Translations under genes and position numbers: made by a program | Notes under the pieces: generated by a model | Databases searched by the model: none | What the model was told of the DNA's origin: nothing | The model's input: the letters and a program-made list of their open reading frames with translations, nothing else | Assembly (NCBI GenBank): GCA_027001995.1 | Contig: JALTLO010000193.1 | Location: 71,618 to 97,908 of the forward strand | Origin: Planctomycetota bacterium | GTDB lineage: Bacteria > Planctomycetota > GCA-002687715 > DRQF01 | Length of the DNA stretch: 26,291 nucleotides | Direction of reading: 5' to 3' | Part shown: piece by piece, positions 8,769-26,291 of the stretch | Layout of the letters: the number at the start of each line of letters is the position of its first letter | Numbering within the stretch: position 1 is the stretch's first letter

Positions 8769-9091
8769 CCAACGCGGCGGGCAGTTTCTTGGCGGCAAAT
8801 GGGCCGAAGAGTTGTTGAGGGCCGCTTCGCCATTCTCTTCCTCGGCCTGGTCCAATCGGCCGCTCCATCAAGAAGTAGATATTTTGTTCCTCTGGGGGAA
8901 GCAACCACGTAGATGTATTCCCGAACGTGACTGGTGGAAACTGCCTGGTTGGCTTGAAGCACTCCGGGGTCGTCGTGCAGAAAACTTCCTGCCCAAGTCC
9001 CGGCGCGATTTGGATGTGAGTGAGTTCCCCCCGAAAGACATGAGAGAAATGGCCTTCGGTGTCAAAGAGCACCCAAGTCACGCTTGGCTCA
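8769..9091. repeat. Direct repeat copy 1 (degraded gene remnant, coded on - strand)
   Basis: Aligns with 13139-13390: about 21 substitutions over ~251 nt by hand count; carries an extra 72 nt (8891-8962) and one fewer A in the run at 8981-8984. Confidence 0.95.
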
Positions 9092-13138: not shown

Positions 13139-13390
13139 CCAATACGGCGGGCAGTTTCTTTGCGCTAAAAGGGCCGAAGAGTTGTTGAGGGCCGCTTTGT
13201 TATTCTCTTCCACGGCCTGGTCCAATCCGCCGCTCCAGGGAGAAGTAGATATTTTGTGCCTCCTGGGTCGTCTTGGAGAAAAACTTCCTGCCCAATTCCC
13301 GGCGCGATTTGGATGTGAGTGAGTTCCCCCCGAAAGGCATGAGAGAAATGGCCTTCGGTGTCAAAGTGCACCCAAGTCACGCTTGGCTCA
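13139..13390. repeat. Direct repeat copy 2 (degraded gene remnant)
   Basis: Matches 8769-9091 with an in-frame 72-nt deletion between CCCGGAG/CCCAGAG microhomologies (- strand). Confidence 0.95.
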
Positions 13391-14385: not shown

Positions 14386-15156
14386 GGAGTGCAAGAGAAG
14401 GTTTCGGATTCTATGATCACCTTTCCATTGGGAAGCCGATCACGCCGAAAAGCACACATACTCAAGCTATGCCCTCCCGCGTTTCCAAGAATCGTCGAAA
14501 ACGAAGAGTTCTTCCTCAAAATGGCAAGAGGATGCGGCCTTGAGGTAAACGATGCTAAAATTGTCTATGATCGTACCGGAGAGTCAGGCCTACTCATCAC
14601 TCGATTCGACAGAGTCTTTGAAAATGATCGTGAGTTCCCCACCAAAGTACATGTGGAAGATGGCTGCCAATTTCTTGATCGTTATCCCTCCAGCAAATAC
14701 CAGATTTCTTGCCAAGAGATCGTTGACGGAATCCGCGAATTTGCAACTGCCCCCATGGTTGAAACTCTTAGGTTCTTGAAGCTATACGCGTTCAGTTACA
14801 TCATCGGCAACGGTGATCTGCACGCCAAGAATGTCAGCCTCTGGCGGTCACCCACCAGTGGTCTCGTTGAACTCGCGCCAGCTTACGATTTGCTGACAAC
14901 TCAAGCATACAAAGGGCTCGATCAGCACATGGCCATGAAGTTAGGTGCCAAGGACGACGAGTTTCGCGCCAAAGACTTCCTCAGCTTCGGAAAAAGAAAT
15001 GGAATCCCCGAACCCGCGATCACCAAGATGCTGAAACAACTCGCTTCGAAAGCGCAACCATGGGCGGACAAACTCGATAGCATCAAACTGGAACCCAAAG
15101 ACCAGAACCGCGTGGCACGCTGCATACGCGATCGTTGCAAGCGTTTGGCACGCTAA
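14386..15156 (+). pseudogene. hipA: 5'-truncated HipA-family kinase toxin
   Basis: GVQEK loop remnant, HILK, ENE, RFDR, EDGCQ, GNGDLHAKN, LAPAYD; in-frame TGA at 14368-14370; no N-terminal domain or hipB. Confidence 0.85.
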
Positions 15157-15567: not shown

Positions 15568-17551
15568 TCAATCTCGAACGCTCAAGCCGATTTCTTTTAG
15601 TAGAGCATCTCGGTCAATGGCAACGGACTGGCCAGCTGGGCCACCGACATCAGGCATGGTCAAGATGAGACGGGTCACCACAGGACGCATCTCAGGGATC
15701 TTTGCTGCCTGCCTTGGGGTCTTGCCGTCCAAAGCGGGAATGCTCGTGTCGAGCCAATCAAGATTATGTTGGCGCATGAATTCTTGGATGGACTCAATTG
15801 CCCCTGGCGAAATCTTTTCTTGAGGCGTCAAGCTCGGGAGGGAGGGCGTCATCGGGGCCTTTGAGATCGAGAGGGCGCTCAACCATTTTCTGGATCTGTG
15901 GAATCTCATCCAAGTCCTTTACCAGCCAGGGCCATAAGCGACCAATGAGATGGTTGTTCGTGGTTATTCCGTCTTTGTCGTAGGTGAGTCCAAGAGACTC
16001 TAAGTGACTCAAGGCGCCGTCGATCCTAAAAAGCGGGATCGCATTGCTGTAGATCATCGCAAACTTCCACTCACGGATTGGCTGAACTTGGGCGCAAATA
16101 ACATGGTCCAAGGGAGATGTATTGGAGAGACCAAGATCATGGACAATGTGGCGTTCCCCGCTGAAAATGTCCAAGAACGTTACCGACTCCCCCGCTTCAA
16201 CAGCCTCGATCCGATAAAACGAAATCGGGTTTAGGCTGCGAGTCTGAAGAAGCTCCATTTGAGCGTCATTCAGTTTGTCAGACGCCAACAGGATCTCAGC
16301 AACAGTCTTAGACCGTTTCGTGGGACGATGGAACTGGCCCGCCCATTCCATCATTGCGGTGTTTGAAATAGTACCCCAGTTTTCTGGGAAGTCGATTGCT
16401 CGAGCTGTTTGCCCGAAGAACAAACGCTCCAATCGGTCTCCCGTTCGGCGGAGATTGATCAACTCAGTTCCGAGAAAATGACAAAGCCCCATACTCTCTT
16501 GTCGCCACCATTCGCAGGTTTCCTCATCAGGTGAATCGTGAAAATCGCAAGGAAGAAACTCTCCAATGGACTCTTCAAAGGAGTCTCTGAAGCTCGTCAG
16601 TTCAGAAAGCGAGGAGACATAGCTCGTCGGGATCTCTAAGCGTTTCATAGCATCAGAAATGGCAACTAAGATATCCTTGTCGTCAACCAAAATTTCCTTG
16701 GGGAAACCATCAGTGCCTTCGGCAGTGGCCCCCGTGATGGCGTCGATGATATGTCTTACAATTTCATCAGGTGTTCTGTCCAGCGGAGTGACCAGGTGAA
16801 CGACGCTCCCATCAACCTGATTGACAATAGCAAGGTAGTTGGCTGCGTTGCTTTCACCGAGAAATTCTGAAGTCAGTTCCGCGTAGCCAATCTCCCAAGC
16901 ACTATTCAAGGTTGGCAAGAATTCTCGGGCTTCGAGGCAATCTTCGAGGCTCAAATGCCCCTCGTCCGTGCCGGGATCGACGGCGACATAGCGCGCTTCA
17001 ATTGTTGGCTTGTAGGCCGATCCTTCGATTTTCAGGGTGAGGAGCTTATCCCCGAAGATATCGTAAGGTTTAAGAATCCCCTGCTCATGAGCTAAAATAA
17101 CGGCGTTAATTGCATAGAGCAGCTTCTTCTGGGCGGATCGATTGGGCTCCTTAGGATTGCGGTGTGCCTCCTTGTTGATGAATACGGGGGCGTTCTGTTC
17201 TTTGCGGGCCGAAAATCCCCCAGCGGTCAGAACTTTGCGTTTGTGCCCGGGGATGCGCCCCAGAGTGTCCATGCCAACGCACAGCAATGTGATCTTCTCG
17301 AAGAACTGGGCACCAAGTTCTTCATCTCCAAGGTGCTTGCGAAAGGCGGATAGTGCATCTTTCTCACAATGCATTGTGAGGCCATACATACCGGCTGGGC
17401 CGCCAGTGAATGTAGCGATGAAGCTGTTCTCGCATCCAGGGATTTCGAGTGCGATGGCATCATCGACCTCATGCTCCATCCAAAGCCTAAGGGAGTGGAG
17501 TTTGAGGGCACGTTTCACAAGTTCGCTTGCCAGTCGATCAATAGCCATCAT
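15568..17551 (-). pseudogene. Multidomain hypothetical protein, frameshifted before an Xre/MbcA/ParS-like C-terminal domain
   Basis: 585-aa frame 17551-15794 overlaps frame 15909-15568 containing WLDTSIPALDGKTPRQAA; AAGGA RBS; frameshift may be real or an assembly error. Confidence 0.7.
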
Positions 17552-18072: not shown

Positions 18073-18762
18073 TCATAGAGGCTGATCAATCCAACAAGAG
18101 GCGATGGCGAAGTTGTCGGTGGATTGGGCTTTGATCTGAGTCGAGAACGGTCGAAGGTTTTCTTTGACTTGCTCGTTGTGAATGATGAAAGAGAGGTTGG
18201 AATCAGAATCGGGCAAACTCAATTGCAGGGCATGGAAACCGAGGAACAAGCCAGTCATGGGAAACTGCGCTTTGTAAAACGCTTCTTTGGCGGAGAAGAA
18301 AAGAAGTGCCAAACGAGATTTTTCTGTTTCTTCTATCCCAAAGAGAAGAGCTTCTTCCTCGGGTAGTAGGATCTTCTCGAACAACTTGCGGTCGAGGCCT
18401 TTTCTCATCTCCAAGTCAATGCCAAGAGCCCGGTGATGACATGACTCACTCAGAGTCGCCATCACCACGCCACCAGAATGAGAGATCGACCCGACGACAT
18501 CATTTGGCCAAAGGGGCTCGCGATTCTTGCCGCTGAGAACGGGTTGGGCCTTCAGCCCCAAGTCCTTCATCAGGTTCCGCAGCAGAACTCGAGTCGTGGC
18601 GAATTCAAGGAGACGTTTGTCACCATAGGAGGCAGACTGTTGCCTCTCTTCTGGTAAGAGCCCATCGATATTCTTAGATACTTCTACGACTTGCGAAGCA
18701 ACTTGGCTTGGCATCAGCTCTTTCAACCTCTTGCCGATCTGTTCAGCAACAGAATCAACCAT
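18073..18762 (-). CDS. 4'-phosphopantetheinyl transferase, EntD/Sfp type
   Basis: EPLWPNDVVGSISHS, LGIDLE, FSAKEAFYKA; start overlaps hemD stop by 8 nt. Confidence 0.93.
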   Translation of the reverse strand: MVDSVAEQIGKRLKELMPSQVASQVVEVSKNIDGLLPEERQQSASYGDKRLLEFATTRVLLRNLMKDLGLKAQPVLSGKNREPLWPNDVVGSISHSGGVVMATLSESCHHRALGIDLEMRKGLDRKLFEKILLPEEEALLFGIEETEKSRLALLFFSAKEAFYKAQFPMTGLFLGFHALQLSLPDSDSNLSFIIHNEQVKENLRPFSTQIKAQSTDNFAIASCWIDQPL

Positions 18763-19501
18763 GAGGATTGCTCGTCAGGTATTCCAAAGCAAGTGCCAAG
18801 AGACCTTCATTGCTGGGCTTCGCTGCCACATCAATGTGCGACCAATTTCGTTCTCGCAGGGCGTGGGCTGTTGTCTTGCCAATGGCCAAGGCCCGTAATC
18901 GCTTGCGCGATTCATCTAAGACTTCGTTTGCCGTCACCTGCTCTAAGTGGGCCACAGCCGAGGGGCTGGCAAACACAATGGCTGTTTGTTGGCTCAGATC
19001 GACTGGGTGATCCACCAATGGATTCTTGGTTTCATAAGCAGGAAAAGATCTGATGATAGCGCCAGCGTTCTTGAGGCTTTTCAACGCCTCGTCGTTTGCC
19101 AAAGTGCTTCGTGGCCAGATGAATGTTTTTCCTTGGATATCCAAAGTCAGCAAGTGTTCGACAAGGCCCCCGATGCCATCACCTTCGTGTGCAGGTTCCA
19201 CAAGCCAACCTTGTTCTCTCGCGGATGCCGCCGTTTTTTCTCCTACGGCGAAGACCGACACATTTGCCAAAGATAGCGCCAAATGAGAAGCACTGCCAAG
19301 GCCATGGGCACTGGACAGAATAAGGAAATCGACATCTGCGGTGAGGTCTGTCACGTTTGCAGGCAAAGGGAGTTGAATAATTTCGATGGCCGCAACGTGC
19401 TCAACGTGGGCCCCCAACCCCTCCAGCATCAAAGCCAGTTCGGCTCCAGTTTCGCCTGGGCGCGTGACCAAAATGGATTGTCCTGAAAGAGGTCGTTTCA
19501 T
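18755..19501 (-). CDS. hemD: Uroporphyrinogen-III synthase
   Basis: ILVTRP, AVGEKTA, AYET, FASPSAV, AIGKTTA; ATGA-coupled to hemC. Confidence 0.92.
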   Translation of the reverse strand: MKRPLSGQSILVTRPGETGAELALMLEGLGAHVEHVAAIEIIQLPLPANVTDLTADVDFLILSSAHGLGSASHLALSLANVSVFAVGEKTAASAREQGWLVEPAHEGDGIGGLVEHLLTLDIQGKTFIWPRSTLANDEALKSLKNAGAIIRSFPAYETKNPLVDHPVDLSQQTAIVFASPSAVAHLEQVTANEVLDESRKRLRALAIGKTTAHALRERNWSHIDVAAKPSNEGLLALALEYLTSNPHG

Positions 19502-20442
19502 TTGTCTTCGGTTTCTTCCGAACTTTCAAACAAGCGCGCGCATCCGGCTTTCAAGAGTTCTTCCGCCACAAGCAAACCTGCGGTGGCGCCATCTGACTCG
19601 GCGTCAAACGCGAGCTCAGCCTCAACAACCTCAGAACCATCAACATTGTAAACTTTCGCCTTTAGCACCATCTGATCGCCCACGTAGGCGAAGGAAACTC
19701 CGAGGGGCACATTGCATCCCCCACCCAATTTACGCAAGCAAGCGCGTTCGGCTTGAGCAATGCGCCAAGTGGCTGCATGATTTAGCCCCCCGACAATGCG
19801 ATTCATCTCGGTGTCATCGGTACGAACAGTAATAGCCACGGCTCCCTGCCCCACGGCGGGCAGAAGATCATTGACGTCGAATACCGAGGCAATTCGATGA
19901 GCCAAACCCAAACGAACCATTCCGGCCCTTGCCATGACAATGCCATCGACAGAACCATCATCAACGAAACCAATGCGGGTTGGAACGTTGCCTCTGATGG
20001 GAACAATCTCTAAGTCGGGTCGAAGCCTTTTTAGCTGCGCTGCTCGGCGGACGCTTCCGGTGCCGACCCGCGCCCCTTTTTTGACCTCATCAAAAGGACA
20101 TGAGGCAACAAAACAATCTTCCACCGGACCGCGAGGAAGAACAGCTACTAAGCTCATGCCTGGCAACTCCGCAGTCTCAAGATCTTTCAAACTGTGAACG
20201 GCCAAATCGATTTCAGAGTTGAGGAGGGCGCTATCCAACTCAGCAGTGAAAACCGCTGTGCGCCCCAGCTCCGCGATCTTGACATCCGTGCGACGATCGC
20301 CCAGGGTCTTTACTTTGATGAGATCAACGTCCCGCATGGGGGCTTCCCGAGAAAGAAGATCAAGGACAGTCTCAGCTTGCCAAAGTGCCAAAGCTGAACC
20401 CCGGGTTCCTAAGCGAATGGGTTTATGATCTTCCAACATCAT
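19498..20442 (-). CDS. hemC: Hydroxymethylbilane synthase
   Basis: GTRGSALALWQ, AVHSLKD, GTGSVRR, IRGNVPTR, PAVGQGA, cofactor Cys in GGGCNVP. Confidence 0.96.
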   Translation of the reverse strand: MMLEDHKPIRLGTRGSALALWQAETVLDLLSREAPMRDVDLIKVKTLGDRRTDVKIAELGRTAVFTAELDSALLNSEIDLAVHSLKDLETAELPGMSLVAVLPRGPVEDCFVASCPFDEVKKGARVGTGSVRRAAQLKRLRPDLEIVPIRGNVPTRIGFVDDGSVDGIVMARAGMVRLGLAHRIASVFDVNDLLPAVGQGAVAITVRTDDTEMNRIVGGLNHAATWRIAQAERACLRKLGGGCNVPLGVSFAYVGDQMVLKAKVYNVDGSEVVEAELAFDAESDGATAGLLVAEELLKAGCARLFESSEETEDK

Positions 20443-21671
20443 GACAAGGAATCCTTAAGGAATACTTCGTAAGCACCCCGGACTTGCTCAACAGAAACGT
20501 GAGTCCGGCTGGATAGTTTGAGAGTCTTCAGGGACACACCCAAGAGTCGTTTCGCCAGTTTCTCAGCTTCACTGGCGAATTCTGCGGCGGCAGCATCGCC
20601 GAGGGTTGACAATAGAGTCTCATCGAAAGCCTGGCGCATCTCCTCCACCAAGGGAGCGATGCCTGTGAAATGCTGTTTGGCCAAGAACTTATGAACCTCG
20701 GCAACAACGATCTCTTTGGACTTTTCTGCTTCTTGGCTACGGTCGGCCATGGCGTCTTGAATCAGCTGCGTCAAATCATCAATGTCAAAATGGAAGACCC
20801 CGGGCACTGCAGCGATGCCAACCTCCATCGACCGGGGCACTGAAATGTCGATGAAACACCGCGTCTTGGAAGGTGCTCCATCAAGGCAGTCTGCGGTGAC
20901 CAAAGGCTTAGGGGCTTCCACGGCTCCGATGATCACGTCTGCTTCCTGCACCCACTTCCTGAGGTCATCCAAACTTCCGCTCATGACGCCTAAGTGGGAG
21001 GCTGCCGCTTCGGCTTTCTCAACGGTTCGGTTGAGCAAGGTCAAATTGGCTAGGCCAGCGGAACGCAGATGAGTTGCGGTTTGAATCCCAGTTTCACCCG
21101 CTCCCAAGATGACGACCTTCCGATCTTTCAAAGAACCAAAAATCTTCCCCGCAAGTTTGACAGCCGTTGCCGCGACACTCACGCTGCCCATAGAGATCTG
21201 AGTCTCCGTGCGAATCCGTTTGCCCACTTCCAATGCCTGACGAAAGAGATCGCTCAAAATACGCCCAGAGGCTTGGGCGTTCATCGACTCTTCGAAAGCG
21301 AGCTTTACTTGGCGAAGAATTTCGCTTTCACCGACAATCATCGAGTCAAGGCCAGCACTCACCCGAAACAAATGAAAAACGGTATTCCACCCGGTGTGCC
21401 AATAGGGCTCGAAGCCAGACTCAAGGCCAGGAAAAATGAGAGACTTATAGGCGTCTTGCTCTTGAGCCCCCCCAAGGTGAGCACCATAGAGTTCCGTACG
21501 ATTGCAGGTCGATAGCAAGACATTGCCAGCCAAATCTCCAGAGTTCAACTTCTGGCGGGCGGCAACCCGGTCAGTCTCTGAGAGAGAAAACTGGCCACGT
21601 ATGCCCACTTCAGCTACCCGGTGATTCATACCGAGAATAAACAGCGAATTGCAGGCTTCCGTTGGCATCAC
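20439..21671 (-). CDS. hemA: Glutamyl-tRNA reductase
   Basis: LSTCNRTELY catalytic Cys, GLDSMIVGE, GAGETG, NRT, DISVPR. Confidence 0.95.
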   Translation of the reverse strand: MMPTEACNSLFILGMNHRVAEVGIRGQFSLSETDRVAARQKLNSGDLAGNVLLSTCNRTELYGAHLGGAQEQDAYKSLIFPGLESGFEPYWHTGWNTVFHLFRVSAGLDSMIVGESEILRQVKLAFEESMNAQASGRILSDLFRQALEVGKRIRTETQISMGSVSVAATAVKLAGKIFGSLKDRKVVILGAGETGIQTATHLRSAGLANLTLLNRTVEKAEAAASHLGVMSGSLDDLRKWVQEADVIIGAVEAPKPLVTADCLDGAPSKTRCFIDISVPRSMEVGIAAVPGVFHFDIDDLTQLIQDAMADRSQEAEKSKEIVVAEVHKFLAKQHFTGIAPLVEEMRQAFDETLLSTLGDAAAAEFASEAEKLAKRLLGVSLKTLKLSSRTHVSVEQVRGAYEVFLKDSLS

Positions 21672-22492
21672 ATATGCCCATGAAATTCAAAGATTGGCAA
21701 CATCGAAACCACGACGCTCAAACTCGTGAGCACAAGAATGACAACCGAACAAATCGCCGTCCAACGATCGCTCCAACGCGAAAAGAAACGCCCCACTACG
21801 GGAAGCAGAAGAACAACCCAGATCAACAAAGTGAATGCTATTTTGGGCTGCAAGATGTCGACTTGATCAAAGACGTCGCTATACCATGTGGCTCCCCAGC
21901 CGATTGCAGCGGTAACCAGAACAAGACCAACAACCAAAGCCGCATAGTTCATGCGGGCCAGAGTGTCCATATCTGGAAGGCGTTGAAAAAGGTCGCCAAA
22001 TTTCTTTCGTTGCATAGCCCGGGCTAGACGCAAATAAAGAACACCGTAGAAGCCTCCCACCAAGAGGGCCGCAATACCACCGATGGCCGGTGCCGTGTGC
22101 ATGGTAAAAAGATCAGAATCAAGCAAGGGATTGCGCTTAGGCACATGAGGACCAAACGCCGCGGCATAAGTCACCAAAGCGAAGGGCACCGGCAGAAAAT
22201 CGTATCCTGTGGATGCATTGCGACAGGCAATCTCAACCAGGGCGTAGGTAAGAGTCATTAAGAACGCCAGGGCCGAGAAAGTATCGTAGTAGGTCGTCCA
22301 TGATGGCTGGCCAATCATACGGCCACGGGTATAGAGCAACGCGAAATGGCAGGCCAAGGCCGCCACCACTGCTAAGATGGGACGGCTAAATCTCTTCGTA
22401 CGATTCGAGCCAAGCCGCGCCTTATAGGCTAAGAACGCTGCCATGTAGAAAAGTGGCGTCAATACCAGGAGTGCATTGTTAGCTTCAGTCAT
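21668..22492 (-). CDS. ccsA: CcsA/HemX-like cytochrome c assembly family membrane protein
   Basis: ~8 TM helices, conserved His, LYL..RLPDMDTL, W...PK; usual position next to hemA; lacks full WWD motif, so HemX/YpjD-like. Confidence 0.8.
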   Translation of the reverse strand: MTEANNALLVLTPLFYMAAFLAYKARLGSNRTKRFSRPILAVVAALACHFALLYTRGRMIGQPSWTTYYDTFSALAFLMTLTYALVEIACRNASTGYDFLPVPFALVTYAAAFGPHVPKRNPLLDSDLFTMHTAPAIGGIAALLVGGFYGVLYLRLARAMQRKKFGDLFQRLPDMDTLARMNYAALVVGLVLVTAAIGWGATWYSDVFDQVDILQPKIAFTLLIWVVLLLPVVGRFFSRWSDRWTAICSVVILVLTSLSVVVSMLPIFEFHGHM

Positions 22493-23886
22493 GCCGCTCC
22501 TTCTTTCGTGAGTGCGGTTTCAGGCTTACCGATCAAGATGTGAGCCGCGGCCCGGCCCTTCTTGATGCAGTCATTGAGAGAAACTCCAGCCAAGTAATTG
22601 CCGGCCAAGGCCAAATCGGGACTATCCTTGAGTAGCTTATTGATTGCCTTCACCCGCTGAGCATGGCCCACCATGTATTGAGGCAAACCAGGCTCATGAT
22701 TGACAATATTGAAATAGGAAGGTTGAGGGAATCGAGTCATGCCGAGAGCCAAGGAGAGCTCTCCCAAGAGGATATAGCGCAAGGCCTCCGCTTTCGCGTG
22801 AACAGCTTCCCGATCCAGAGCTCCACCGATAAAACCGTTGAGGGTCTGCACACCTTCCGGGGCACGACCAGAAAACGTCATGGAAGTAAACAACCAACCG
22901 AGGGTTCTCATCCGCGACGGACGCGGCACAAGGAATCCGAAGGCCGAAGGTAACTCCCGTAATTCATCATCTGGGAATGCAGCATGAACGCTGGCAATGG
23001 GAGCATAGTCAATATCGAAAAGTAGATCAGCAACAATAGGGCTCACACCAGTAAGAAGCAATCCAGCGCTTTGTGCTGGGGTCGCCAAAACAACTTGCTT
23101 GGCCCGAAGCTCTTCAATTCCATTGGGCCCTTCGATGGTGAGGGTAAAACCATCCCGACCATTTTCTTTCAACAGCTTAGCCCGCCGATTGAGCTTGATG
23201 CGGTCGCCCAAATTCTTCGCCAAGCCTTCGGTGAGTTGGCTCAAACCGTGCTTGAAGTTTTGGATGGTCATCTTGTTGCCATGACCCGTCTTCTTACGCG
23301 AGCGCATGGCCTTAATGACGCTGCCGTGTTCATCTTCCATCTTCTTCAATTGAGGAAAAGTGGCCTCAATCCCCACTTGGCGGGCGTCTCCGGCATAGAT
23401 GCCAGATACAAAGGCATCAATCAAGGTGCGGGTTGGAGCTGGTCCGAATCGCCTTGAGAAGAATTCGGCCACACTTTCAGGAAGTGTGGATTTGCGCTTG
23501 GCTACAAACGGTTCCCACAGGATTCGCAATTTCTGTGGCAAGGAGAAAAGGTCGGTTTTTAGCAGGTCCTTCGGGCCAGTTGGGATCTTCATCAATCGAT
23601 GATTGTGATATAGAAGTCTGGTCTCAGCGGCACTATTGGCCTGAATGAGATCTCGATCGACGCCCGCCTGTTTGGCCAGGTCCAGAATAGCTGTGGCAGA
23701 CGAGGGAAAAGAATTGGGGCCATTCTCGAAGAGCTTTCCATCATGACTCACAGTTTCGATGGCACCGCCAACCCGGTGGGACGATTCCAGCACAACGACA
23801 TTCTTGCCACGGTCCACCAATTCCTGTGCCGCGGCCAAACCTGAGATGCCTGCACCAATGACGCAGATAAGATCACCGTTGCTCAT
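22489..23886 (-). CDS. hemY: HemY-type FAD proto/coproporphyrinogen oxidase (465 aa)
   Basis: GAGISG, ENGPNSF, SGIYAGDA, FGFLVP, PQYMVGH, AGNYLAGVSLNDC; ATG 23886 overlaps upstream TGA, with GGAG RBS. Confidence 0.94.
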   Translation of the reverse strand: MSNGDLICVIGAGISGLAAAQELVDRGKNVVVLESSHRVGGAIETVSHDGKLFENGPNSFPSSATAILDLAKQAGVDRDLIQANSAAETRLLYHNHRLMKIPTGPKDLLKTDLFSLPQKLRILWEPFVAKRKSTLPESVAEFFSRRFGPAPTRTLIDAFVSGIYAGDARQVGIEATFPQLKKMEDEHGSVIKAMRSRKKTGHGNKMTIQNFKHGLSQLTEGLAKNLGDRIKLNRRAKLLKENGRDGFTLTIEGPNGIEELRAKQVVLATPAQSAGLLLTGVSPIVADLLFDIDYAPIASVHAAFPDDELRELPSAFGFLVPRPSRMRTLGWLFTSMTFSGRAPEGVQTLNGFIGGALDREAVHAKAEALRYILLGELSLALGMTRFPQPSYFNIVNHEPGLPQYMVGHAQRVKAINKLLKDSPDLALAGNYLAGVSLNDCIKKGRAAAHILIGKPETALTKEGAA

Positions 23887-24851
23887 GCTGTGTGTTCTCC
23901 GCATTCCTTGGCAATGTGCTTAGCCAATTCCATCAAGAACTCCTGCCGATCGTTGATCGTCGGCACTCGATACAAGTGCAACTTGTGACTTCGCAGCAAG
24001 CGGCCGCAATGCATGTCTATACTACAAAGAGTATCAAATCTATCCGAGGCCCAACCCAATGGTACAAGGGCGATTGACCCGACGCCATTCTTCACTGCGG
24101 AATCGACGAGAGAATCAACCTGGGGCTCCAGCCCTTTAGGATGCAGGCGACTCGGTAGCCAAGCGAGATGGGCATCCTGGTTCAGGTCGAGGTGAGCAAG
24201 AATGCGATTCATCATGGCCTGAACCCGGTTTTCGACCTCTGGATCGGCCTTGGCCTGGGCCCCGCCGGGATCTGGGGCCAAGAAAATCACTTGAGCATTC
24301 TTCGGAATCAGACTCAGGGTTTCGTGAAAATGGTGAGCCAGCGTCTTGTGGATTGCTTCATCTTGGTGCCATTGGTCCACTCGACGGAGATCCCCCGTTT
24401 TCCTCTGAGCTGCTTGCCAATGCTCCTCGAACTTCTTCATGGTGGCGTTATTTGACACTTGAACGCCATAGGAGTTCATGGGCACCAGAATGGCTCGCTG
24501 CATGCCCTCTTTGATCATGAGGTCAACAGCTTCGCCAACCCCTGGGCTGCCATGGTTCATGACCACATAACCTTCGCAACCCAAGATTTCAGCGATCCCG
24601 TTAGCTTGGCCGCCGCAGACTCTTTGCAAAGGAGAATCAACCCCGATTTGGTCGAAGTCCTTGCGGTAGGCTTCGCCGTGTTCCGCCAGGGTGGTCTCGA
24701 CCACAAGAGGCCGAATCATTCTTTTCATCAAAGGAAGGGGAGTGGCTTCTTTGTCCCCCAACACTTCTCGCAGAAAAGCATCTACCTGCTGAGGACCAGA
24801 GGGCTCCCCCGATTCCAACAGGACGATGGCTGTCTGCTTATCGAAAATCAA
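23883..24851 (-). CDS. hemH: Ferrochelatase-fold protein with degenerate active site
   Basis: Colinear with HemH (V..FL....D, QIG..SPL, LVP, SD..TL..ID, YRVPTIND..F) and located between hemE and hemY, but the SAH motif reads LAP. Confidence 0.8.
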   Translation of the reverse strand: MIFDKQTAIVLLESGEPSGPQQVDAFLREVLGDKEATPLPLMKRMIRPLVVETTLAEHGEAYRKDFDQIGVDSPLQRVCGGQANGIAEILGCEGYVVMNHGSPGVGEAVDLMIKEGMQRAILVPMNSYGVQVSNNATMKKFEEHWQAAQRKTGDLRRVDQWHQDEAIHKTLAHHFHETLSLIPKNAQVIFLAPDPGGAQAKADPEVENRVQAMMNRILAHLDLNQDAHLAWLPSRLHPKGLEPQVDSLVDSAVKNGVGSIALVPLGWASDRFDTLCSIDMHCGRLLRSHKLHLYRVPTINDRQEFLMELAKHIAKECGEHTA

Positions 24852-24854
24852 AAT

Positions 24855-25895
24855 TTATCCCTGCCAGGCACGGACCGTGTCAACCACAGCTTTTGCCGAT
24901 GCAACGGGGGTCCACTTGAGGACGCCACTACCCAAATTGAAGATGAATCCTTTGTGCCCAGCGAATTCCTGGAGGGTCTTTCTGGTCTCCCTCGCTGCGG
25001 CTTCCGGGCTGGCTAACAAGGCGCAAGGGTCCATGTTTCCTTGGATAGCGCAACGACCTGCCACAATCTTAATCGCGTCCGCAGCGTCAATGCGCCAATC
25101 AATGGCCACCACATCAGCTCCGGAATCGGCCATGAATTCAAGAAGATGCCCACAGCCATTCACGTAAGAAATGATAGGGACGCCCAAATCCTTCAGGCTG
25201 GCAATCAAACGCTTCATGCGCGGTTGCACAAAAGTGGCATAATCGCGGCTAGACAACGATCCCCCCCAGGAATCGAAAATCTGAAGGGCATCGGCCCCAG
25301 CTTCCGCTTGAACACGAAGATAGGCACCCAGGTTGTCGGTGATGCGGTCCATGAGCAAATGGAAAGTTTCGGGCTCACCAAACATCAACTTCTTGAGGTT
25401 TTCGTAATTGCGGGAACCTTTTCCTTCGACCATGTAGGACGCCAAGGTGAAAGGAGCCCCCCCAAACCCGATGAGGGCGCGGTGATCGCCGATTGCTGGT
25501 CGAGTCAAGCGAATTGCCTCGGCGGGCCAAGGCGTTTTCTCCACGGGGTCGAAATCGACCAAAGCTTCCACGGCCGCCAAATCTCGAATAGGAGCCCCCA
25601 ATTGAGGGCCTTTGTCTGTGAATTCCAGATTCATCCCCATCGCCTCAGGAGGCAACAGAATATCAGAGAAAATGATCCCCACATCCAAACCCAAAATGTC
25701 AATGGGTTGCATCGTCACTTCGCAGCAAAGTTCTGGAGACTTGCAGAGCTCAAGAAAGGAGACTTTTGAGCGTATGGCTTGGTACTCAGGCATGTACCGT
25801 CCAGCCTGGCGCATAAGCCAAACTGGGATTTCCGGGACGGCCTGCTGGTTGCAGGCGGCGAGAAAGCTTTCCCTGGGGGTCATATCCGTTTGCAT
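24855..25895 (-). CDS. hemE: Uroporphyrinogen decarboxylase
   Basis: WLMRQAGRYMPEY, FSDILLP, GAPFTLASY, QIFDSW, QGNMDP; start uncertain (ATG 25895, ATG 25883 or TTG 25928). Confidence 0.95.
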   Translation of the reverse strand: MQTDMTPRESFLAACNQQAVPEIPVWLMRQAGRYMPEYQAIRSKVSFLELCKSPELCCEVTMQPIDILGLDVGIIFSDILLPPEAMGMNLEFTDKGPQLGAPIRDLAAVEALVDFDPVEKTPWPAEAIRLTRPAIGDHRALIGFGGAPFTLASYMVEGKGSRNYENLKKLMFGEPETFHLLMDRITDNLGAYLRVQAEAGADALQIFDSWGGSLSSRDYATFVQPRMKRLIASLKDLGVPIISYVNGCGHLLEFMADSGADVVAIDWRIDAADAIKIVAGRCAIQGNMDPCALLASPEAAARETRKTLQEFAGHKGFIFNLGSGVLKWTPVASAKAVVDTVRAWQG

Positions 25896-25968
25896 AGTCC
25901 AGTTTATGACGTTGTCTCCCAGGTTCAACTATACCTCTGCCCCATCCAAGACAATTCCTTCCCAAGAG

Positions 25969-26291
25969 TCAAAAATTACCCGACAAGGCCTCAACCAAAC
26001 TGTTTGACACGAGTGTCGCACTTAATAATGGCACGTAGGGCTCCTTCACTTGACTCGCATCTTGGAGAGAATTTGCGACATAGGTGGCAGGAAATCTTCT
26101 CTTGGGGCTCGGCACCAAACCCCGAGGCGTGACGTCAATGAGATCGAGACGAAGCAAGTCCGGTTGAATGGTCGAGCTCAAGACATCACGGTCAAGGCCC
26201 ATGAGGGCCGCCAGTCTGGCTTGGCCAGTGGGACTTCTGCGAGCTTTGAGAATCTTCAAGGCCTGGCTGTGACGAGGGCCCAAGCCCAGTT
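25969..26291 (-). CDS. RuvB-like protein, C-terminal winged-helix domain (partial, runs off window)
   Basis: LGLGPRHSQALKIL...PTGQARLAALMG...TIQPDLLRLDLIDVTPRG resembles RuvB GLD...PVGL..LAA.LG...IEP.L...G.I.RTPRGR. Confidence 0.6.
   Translation of the reverse strand, partial: LGLGPRHSQALKILKARRSPTGQARLAALMGLDRDVLSSTIQPDLLRLDLIDVTPRGLVPSPKRRFPATYVANSLQDASQVKEPYVPLLSATLVSNSLVEALSGNF

Follow-up and report, generated by a model that had tools for sequence, protein, structure and literature searches.

A predicted pseudo-ferrochelatase under purifying selection in the heme operon of a Planctomycetota family

The heme biosynthesis operon of a bacterium of the phylum Planctomycetota (assembly GCA_027001995.1, contig JALTLO010000193.1, positions 71,618 to 97,908; this entire stretch of 26,291 nucleotides is hereafter the window) includes a homolog of the ferrochelatase gene hemH, denoted here pseudo-hemH (positions 23883-24851 of the window, minus strand). 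Its predicted product of 322 amino acids (aa) has the full type II chelatase fold and lacks the catalytic His. Judging from the sequences, this is a real, selected, family-restricted bacterial pseudo-ferrochelatase, for which a His-bearing sister and natural deletion controls exist, and we consider it highly probable that the protein is a selected, inactive pseudoenzyme. An earlier note on this DNA had proposed a selected pseudoenzyme from the window alone; the proposal is borne out by a second hemH gene with intact motifs in the same genome, by the loss of the His throughout the clade to which the protein belongs, and by the rejection of neutral evolution.

Fold and active site of the pseudo-hemH product

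The pseudo-hemH frame is open over its entire length, starts with TTG 3 nucleotides (nt) past the hemE stop codon, at the same position as in its relatives, and is coupled to hemY as the earlier note had stated: the TGA of pseudo-hemH and the ATG of hemY overlap at 23886 (ATGA). The hemY start that was listed first (23904) has no support from the relatives.

The protein matches the ferrochelatase family PF00762 with 143 bits, against a gathering score of 27, and scores 111.2 with TIGR00109, below the cut-off of 124.6. Its structure, predicted alone with AlphaFold2, is a ferrochelatase fold with a predicted local distance difference test score (pLDDT) of 88.6 and a predicted template modeling (TM) score (pTM) of 0.88; the top Foldseek matches of the model are all ferrochelatases (TMq 0.77-0.85; TM 0.84 to human ferrochelatase, FECH), and a search of the ESM Atlas retrieved only ordinary ferrochelatase clusters. 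The labels Gln139, Tyr165, Ser303, Trp310, Asp340, Thr344, Asp349, and Asn372 follow the customary numbering of the human enzyme; the remaining human positions were numbered from an alignment with human chains of solved structure and from PMC9133952.

The FSAH motif reads FLAP, as previously noted, with L191-A192-P193 encoded by TTG GCC CCA at 24281-24273, and P193 (24273-24275, minus strand) aligns with His263 of the human ferrochelatase chains in solved structures (His183 in Bacillus subtilis). The other quoted changes are all present as well, namely, D270-R271-F272-D273 at the start of the pi-helix (24033-24044, minus strand; D340-H341-I342-E343 in human), M98-N99-H100, MNSYGV, G240, and FDQIGV. 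D273 aligns with the residue mutated in the E343D structure 4kla. In ferrochelatase, the propionates are bound by Arg115, Tyr123, and Ser130 (PMC9133952), and the equivalents of these residues in pseudo-hemH are His58, Phe66, and Ser73; the lip segment is kept in the alignment. An assembly error was considered as the source of FLAP and rejected: the 99% identical protein P0001 has the same FLAP, and the His is likewise missing from another 12 proteins.

On sequence evidence, pseudo-hemH is a member of the ferrochelatase fold family that lacks the catalytic features of the ferrochelatase enzymes and displays those expected of a pseudoenzyme. It is likely to have no chelatase activity because every His263 variant studied is inactive (PMC9133952); the corresponding residues of CpfC are confirmed as His182 and Glu263 (PMC10427985).

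To place the protein among its relatives, we collected 150 homologs, of which 147 were examined, the other three being already in the set. The catalytic-column His is present in 133 of these and absent in 14, which include two duplicates of the G003 and G004 proteins, six new members of the clade (P0011, P0012, and P0014-P0017), and six others (P0065, P0086, P0121, P0125, P0127, and P0128). Four of the latter six were placed in the tree and fall outside the clade, so the loss of the catalytic His may have occurred several times among ferrochelatase homologs.

The 13 distinct His-less proteins form a single clade with a Shimodaira-Hasegawa-like approximate likelihood ratio (SH-aLRT) support of 99 in a quick tree of 39 rows, in which P0016 and P0017 are long branches. 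The sister of this clade is P0013, which combines the clade signature with the motifs MRY, SAHG, FQS, WLEP, and ET and a TIGR00109 score of 295, and operon-type enzymes form the next group. The other 11 clade members that were scanned score 49.7-118.9 with TIGR00109, so that all 12 are under the cut-off.

His263 is found in none of the 13 proteins, with seven different replacement residues (P,K,S,P,A,R,K,G,R,P,Q,G,V across the clade). The equivalents of Asn75, Met76, Tyr165, Ser261, Ser303, and Trp310 are lost or almost so; that of Gln302 is kept in 1/13, Tyr123 in 1/13, Arg115 in 4/13, Arg164 in 4/13, and Ser130 in 11/13. The earlier note had also listed the loss of the catalytic Glu343. An Asp is indeed present in the window protein; however, this is not a trait of the clade: the position is occupied by Glu in 10, Asp in 2, and Met in 1 of the 13 proteins. 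Because Glu is kept in 10/13, the replacement in the window protein is, by this comparison, a local change. At the position of His341, 10/13 members have Arg. The same note had named a compensating His in the site as an observation that would refute its proposal; no position carries a conserved His in the clade, the sole candidate being His100 (24552-24554, minus strand; Tyr165-equivalent position), which occurs in 4/13.

The retained residues are concentrated in two segments, residues 66-120 (24492-24656, minus strand), shared with P0013, and residues 256-310 (23922-24086, minus strand), which comprise the pi-helix and the C-terminal segment. Identity among the 13 proteins is 48% and 47% in these two segments, compared with 38% and 42% among 30 sequences randomly drawn from 149 His-bearing ones. 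Between them lies the decayed half of the pocket (residues 121-255; 24087-24491, minus strand), where the YPQYS, SAH, GDPY, FQSR, and WLxP motifs are lost and identity is 21-25% in the clade vs 31-35% in the same 30 sequences; purifying selection persists there. Altogether, 18 positions are invariant: G15, P74, A83, L90, G94, Y95, P103, L111, M112, E115, W145, D270, T274, D279, R284, R295, N300, and D301. Seventeen of these are common to P0013, and R284 is new (Ala in P0013).

Selection, the second ferrochelatase, and the history of the operon

Pseudo-hemH is relaxed yet clearly selected. For the unsaturated pair G001/G002, the ratio of nonsynonymous to synonymous rates (omega) estimated with the Nei-Gojobori method (NG86) is 0.161 (bootstrap 95% confidence interval 0.105-0.213), and the same pair yields 0.125 for the active hemH; the values of HemE (0.054) and of a HemY fragment (0.037) are lower. 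A maximum likelihood (ML) codon model of six pseudo-hemH genes gives an omega of 0.159 and rejects omega=1 (log-likelihood -5764.7 vs -5955.0); the omega grid peaks for HemY, HemE, HemN, and the operon hemH are at 0.02-0.05. The frame is open in 6/6 genomes, and in neutral simulations at the G001/G002 distance, both frames were open in 2 of 2000 runs. The G000/G007 pair is saturated for omega estimation, and for G003/G004, the pseudo-hemH omega is 0.50 vs 0.21-0.44 for the neighbors, with a GC content at third codon positions above 0.88 that deflates the synonymous distance (dS) in this pair. A graded relaxation in genomes that carry both HemF and HemN was rejected, the ratios of nonsynonymous distance (dN) to the neighbors being alike.

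The window genome (G000) carries one further PF00762 match, as the earlier note had suggested looking for: a canonical hemH at C197:76390-77316 (298 bits) with intact FSFHG and DNLETQEE. The ferrochelatase part of this protein scores 255 bits with TIGR00109 and belongs to an 808-aa single frame (L003:6900-9323), in which it is followed by a Cys-rich linker and a major facilitator superfamily (MFS) transporter; in the loci examined, none of the other separately located hemH genes had an MFS match next to it. High-scoring separate hemH genes are present in 6/6 genomes with a dead copy (in G004, split over two contig ends). In the tree, these active copies lie across a 100-supported branch from the dead clade, together with proteobacterial and Bacteroidota enzymes, and those of the pseudo-hemH-bearing genomes belong to separate groups: G000 alone; G007 with G008, G017, and G018; and G001-G003 with G005 and G006, which have no pseudo copy.

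HemN is present in G000 (92% complete), where searches for HemF, HemJ, ChdC, and AhbD found none of the four. ChdC/HemQ (PF06778) was detected in 0/23 genomes, and the best AhbD match in G000 (TIGR04545) reaches 74.5 bits vs 500. Given the presence of HemN and no ChdC or AhbD found, the heme pathway of G000 is, judging from gene content, protoporphyrin-dependent, with the C197 protein as the likely iron-inserting enzyme. A CbiX match in G000 (L033:1351-2855) was considered as the missing chelatase and discarded; its CbiX-like chelatase domain follows an N-terminal hydrophobic leader, and the gene is coupled to one for a small membrane protein, with a ferritin-like gene nearby. The hemF match contains an in-frame TGA in G015 and G016 and consists of two separate pieces in G015; both genomes lack HemN over the cut-off (L126-L128).

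The distribution of pseudo-hemH is narrow. A profile of the dead copies scored 420-517 bits in 6/9 genomes of the family and no more than 130 elsewhere among 23 genomes of the order; in a sample of the phylum (401 genomes, five candidates scored per genome), only the same six genomes exceeded 380 bits, the next score being 209.5. A weak profile match in G018 (C36) turned out to be a chance match in a different gene. The order hemE, pseudo-hemH, hemY and the stop/start overlap onto hemY (ATGA or GTGA) are found in 6/6 genomes. In G005 (81% complete) and G006, hemE is followed directly by hemY, a clean loss of the operon hemH; G008 has no hemE match either, and its operon is probably unassembled. 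In sister families, six genomes have the arrangement hemE-hemN-hemH(-hemY), in which the slot of pseudo-hemH is occupied by a hemH that keeps the His (G022 is cut off after hemH), and four other genomes have hemE-hemY only. A metagenome scan with P0013 yielded 47 loci with 33-54% identity, none of which is P0013 itself and none of which exceeds 84 bits to the pseudo copy. The simplest history would be that the native enzyme lost catalysis once the acquired copies took over.

Candidate roles of the retained protein

Under the explanation we favor, pseudo-hemH would be the native operon ferrochelatase of the lineage, the catalysis of which was made redundant by acquired hemH copies. The separately located ferrochelatase with intact motifs would insert iron, and selection would maintain a protein contact via residues 66-120 and the pi-helix/C-terminal region, through which the dead subunit would stabilize, position, or organize HemY. 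With His263 variants inactive and the propionate site largely lost, the protein is likely inactive and its specific binding of porphyrin doubtful. Retention of a protein contact is the simplest interpretation, and a role through such a contact appears reasonably probable. Unwinding of the pi-helix creates a surface for partner proteins (PMC9133952). HemY is the favored partner, albeit tentatively, because it is co-inherited and translationally coupled with pseudo-hemH and because oxidase-ferrochelatase complexes have been reported in Thermosynechococcus and for the mammalian protoporphyrinogen oxidase PPOX (PMC4231631, PMC10320005, PMC9133952). The mode of the oxidase-ferrochelatase interaction is called unknown in a review (PMC4231631).

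Several observations weigh against this assignment. According to a 2026 review (PMC13564367), contacts of the terminal enzymes are transient, and a stable channeling complex cannot form. HemY occurs without any operon hemH in 6 genomes (G005, G006, and G015-G018), so a partner role is not obligate. A scan for sites that track the presence of the partner found 12/165 invariant sites in HemY, no excess, with 12/168 in HemE, 17/150 in HemA, 10/145 in HemC, and 18/104 in the CcsA-like protein. The retained residues are largely common to P0013 and may represent the structural core only, and the nonsynonymous rate of pseudo-hemH is 2-4 times that of HemE and HemY. Stop/start overlaps are frequent throughout the heme operon of the window. 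Finally, no HemY fusion was found among longer proteins, which is weak evidence, the one match being a HemE-HemH fusion from another lineage. The latter protein, P0008, consists of 701 aa.

The main rival places the contact with HemN, or casts pseudo-hemH as a bridge between HemN and HemY that is lost once HemF replaces HemN. HemN is present in 12/12 genomes in which the operon contains a hemH, whether active or dead (in G012, hemN is split over two contig ends), whereas 6/6 genomes without an operon hemH have HemF and 5/6 lack HemN over the cut-off; moreover, in Campylobacter jejuni, a HemN-family protein binds ferrochelatase (PMC10320005). In the pseudo-hemH-bearing family, hemN lies outside the operon, so the loss of HemN in G005 and G006 may be a separate event, and the hemN tree matches the pseudo-hemH tree. 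However, the co-loss amounts to some two events that are independent of each other. Because hemN adjoins hemH in family f4, a single deletion explains both losses there; the placement of G005+G006 inside or outside the pseudo-hemH-bearing lineages is ambiguous (support 60.5/72), with the HemE and HemY trees in disagreement; and the absence of HemN in G005 comes from an incomplete genome. Furthermore, G018 keeps HemN without an operon hemH, and in G003 and G004, where the pseudo copy coexists with both HemF and HemN, it is not clearly more relaxed than expected from the neighbors. We regard a HemN contact as unlikely, although it is the strongest competitor. The same low standing applies to the broader proposition that this bacterial pseudo-ferrochelatase family might be a non-catalytic organizer linking the oxygen-independent HemN to HemY; it would be the first such family with a function and would imply that ordinary ferrochelatases have a second role as scaffolds, which can be separated from iron insertion and is needed until HemF takes the place of HemN.

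A carrier function is doubtful. In this scenario, protoporphyrin or heme would be bound but not converted in the pocket that lacks the His, as in human E343K, and would be buffered there or passed on, for example, to the CcsA-like protein encoded in the operon. The fold is intact, Ser130 is retained in 11/13 members, an aromatic residue occupies the position of Phe337 in 12/13, and the protein has the lip segment. Protoporphyrin is found bound to the human variant E343K, itself inactive, after purification (PMC9133952), and two dead enzymes, HemW and CgdH2, have turned into heme chaperones (PMC10320005). These features are offset by the state of the pocket: the Arg115 equivalent is Arg in 4/13 and the Tyr123 equivalent is Tyr in 1/13, the equivalents of Asn75, Met76, Arg164, Tyr165, and the Gln302-Trp310 loop vary freely, and no His is conserved as a ligand. 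The porphyrin chaperone suggested by the earlier note loses ground for the same reason.

We give little credence to a slowly decaying relic, with selection for a soluble open frame, such as that required for translational coupling to hemY, until a clean deletion occurs. Such clean operon losses are seen in G005 and G006, and the protein changes faster than its neighbors, with 29-53% identity among members and an 11-residue deletion in G003. A relic is at odds, however, with 18 positions, among them R284, absent from the sister, that are invariant over 13 proteins even though segment identity is 21-48%; with clade lengths of 316-347 aa, apart from P0015 (291 aa, with a shortened N-terminus); and with an omega that resembles that of the active hemH.

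An enzyme with new chemistry that would employ the conserved Asp270, Arg271, Glu273, Asp279, and Arg284 appears very unlikely: this polar set is conserved and includes two residues that P0013 does not have, Arg271 and Arg284, but Arg271 is replaced by Cys or Gln in 3/13 and Glu273 by Asp or Met in 3/13, and the opposite wall of the pocket is unconstrained. That pseudo-hemH pairs with the active ferrochelatase as the inactive half of a heterodimer, another option raised earlier, is most improbable. An active copy always accompanies the pseudo copy in the genome and mammalian FECH is a homodimer (PMC7140478), yet the active partners belong to three separate tree groups, while the conserved segments of the pseudo copy are unchanged. 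A still-active ferrochelatase with His100 as the compensating residue is hardly credible, as the residue, although located at the Tyr165-equivalent position of the window protein, occurs in only 4/13 members, all His263 variants studied are inactive, and 12/12 scanned clade members fall under the TIGR00109 cut-off.

Among known systems, the native Planctomycetota operon type of PpfC/HemH shares with pseudo-hemH the fold, the length, the lip segment, the operon slot before hemY, and the equivalents of GxP, SP, D340, T344, D349, and N372, and the sister P0013 keeps the full site; pseudo-hemH differs in the absence of His263, in the loss, mostly or wholly, of the Asn75, Met76, Tyr123, Tyr165, Gln302, Ser303, and Trp310 equivalents, and in the sub-cut-off TIGR00109 score. 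The earlier note knew of no described equivalent, which does not hold: a Caenorhabditis elegans "pseudoferrochelatase", a ferrochelatase homolog without His263, has been described as non-functional (PMC9133952). The likeness is by description only, and that protein belongs to a eukaryotic heme auxotroph without the pathway, whereas pseudo-hemH resides in a working bacterial operon of a genome with a separate intact-motif copy. HemW and C. jejuni CgdH2 are likewise heme-enzyme homologs without the original activity that perform a non-catalytic job (PMC10320005), but they have a radical SAM fold of their own and His heme ligands, in contrast to the chelatase fold with no conserved His in pseudo-hemH. 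The HemY/PPOX-ferrochelatase complexes of Thermosynechococcus elongatus and of the mammalian metabolon exemplify the contact that the favored explanation proposes as retained, but the ferrochelatase in them is active, and the association is considered transient. A literature search that left most subscription papers and supplements outside its scope found no bacterial pseudo-ferrochelatase, and the available portions of PMC7140478, PMC11528492, and PMC7340540 contain nothing on pseudo-hemH.

The pseudo-hemH clade bears on an open question, the handover of toxic late-heme intermediates via protein contacts in bacteria. It amounts to a natural separation-of-function experiment, in which catalysis would be lost and something else kept, with the His-bearing sister P0013 and the relatives with the gene deleted as controls; the 18 invariant residues may mark the surface of interest. 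A practical corollary is that a PF00762 match in a heme operon may represent a dead protein, with the functional ferrochelatase encoded elsewhere. The reach of these conclusions is limited to one uncultured family, with a role predicted from sequence.

Neighboring genes and other features of the window

The operon runs on the minus strand in the order hemE, pseudo-hemH, hemY, a CcsA-like gene, hemA, hemC, hemD, and a phosphopantetheinyl transferase gene. By family scores, these genes encode uroporphyrinogen decarboxylase (hemE, 24855-25928, the upstream neighbor of pseudo-hemH), a HemY-type protoporphyrinogen oxidase (22489-23886; its start overlaps the pseudo-hemH stop), a CcsA/CcsB-like cytochrome c assembly membrane protein (21668-22492), glutamyl-tRNA reductase (hemA, 20439-21671), hydroxymethylbilane synthase (hemC, 19498-20442), and uroporphyrinogen-III synthase (hemD, 18755-19501). 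A scan for promoters and terminators gave a signal no greater than in shuffles.

The usual form of one HemE motif is NLGHG. The HemE of the window reads NLGSG, so that the earlier statement that the neighboring hem enzymes keep their main catalytic residues requires qualification; for the other neighbors, it agrees with family scores, by which alone they were checked. The His of the NLGHG-type motif is missing (mostly NLGSG) from the HemE of 17/17 members of the class examined (window 24855-25928; L092-L107). Co-evolution of this His-to-Ser change with pseudo-hemH was ruled out, the change being a class-wide trait.

An EntD-like phosphopantetheinyl transferase (18073-18762) overlaps the hemD stop; in those related loci that were inspected, no such gene follows hemD. 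Upstream of hemE, where the contig ends, positions 25969-26291 encode a fragment of RuvB with the C-terminal winged helix. A two-part direct repeat (8769-9091 and 13139-13390; 129 nt at 87% and 111 nt at 97%), of which the genome holds no further copy, flanks two FG-GAP repeat genes adjoining hemL. Positions 14389-15156 encode a HipA-like kinase C-terminal domain (PF07804), with no obvious adjoining antitoxin frame of at least 80 aa, and positions 15794-17551 a 585-aa protein with weak matches to DUF6930 and DUF7309.

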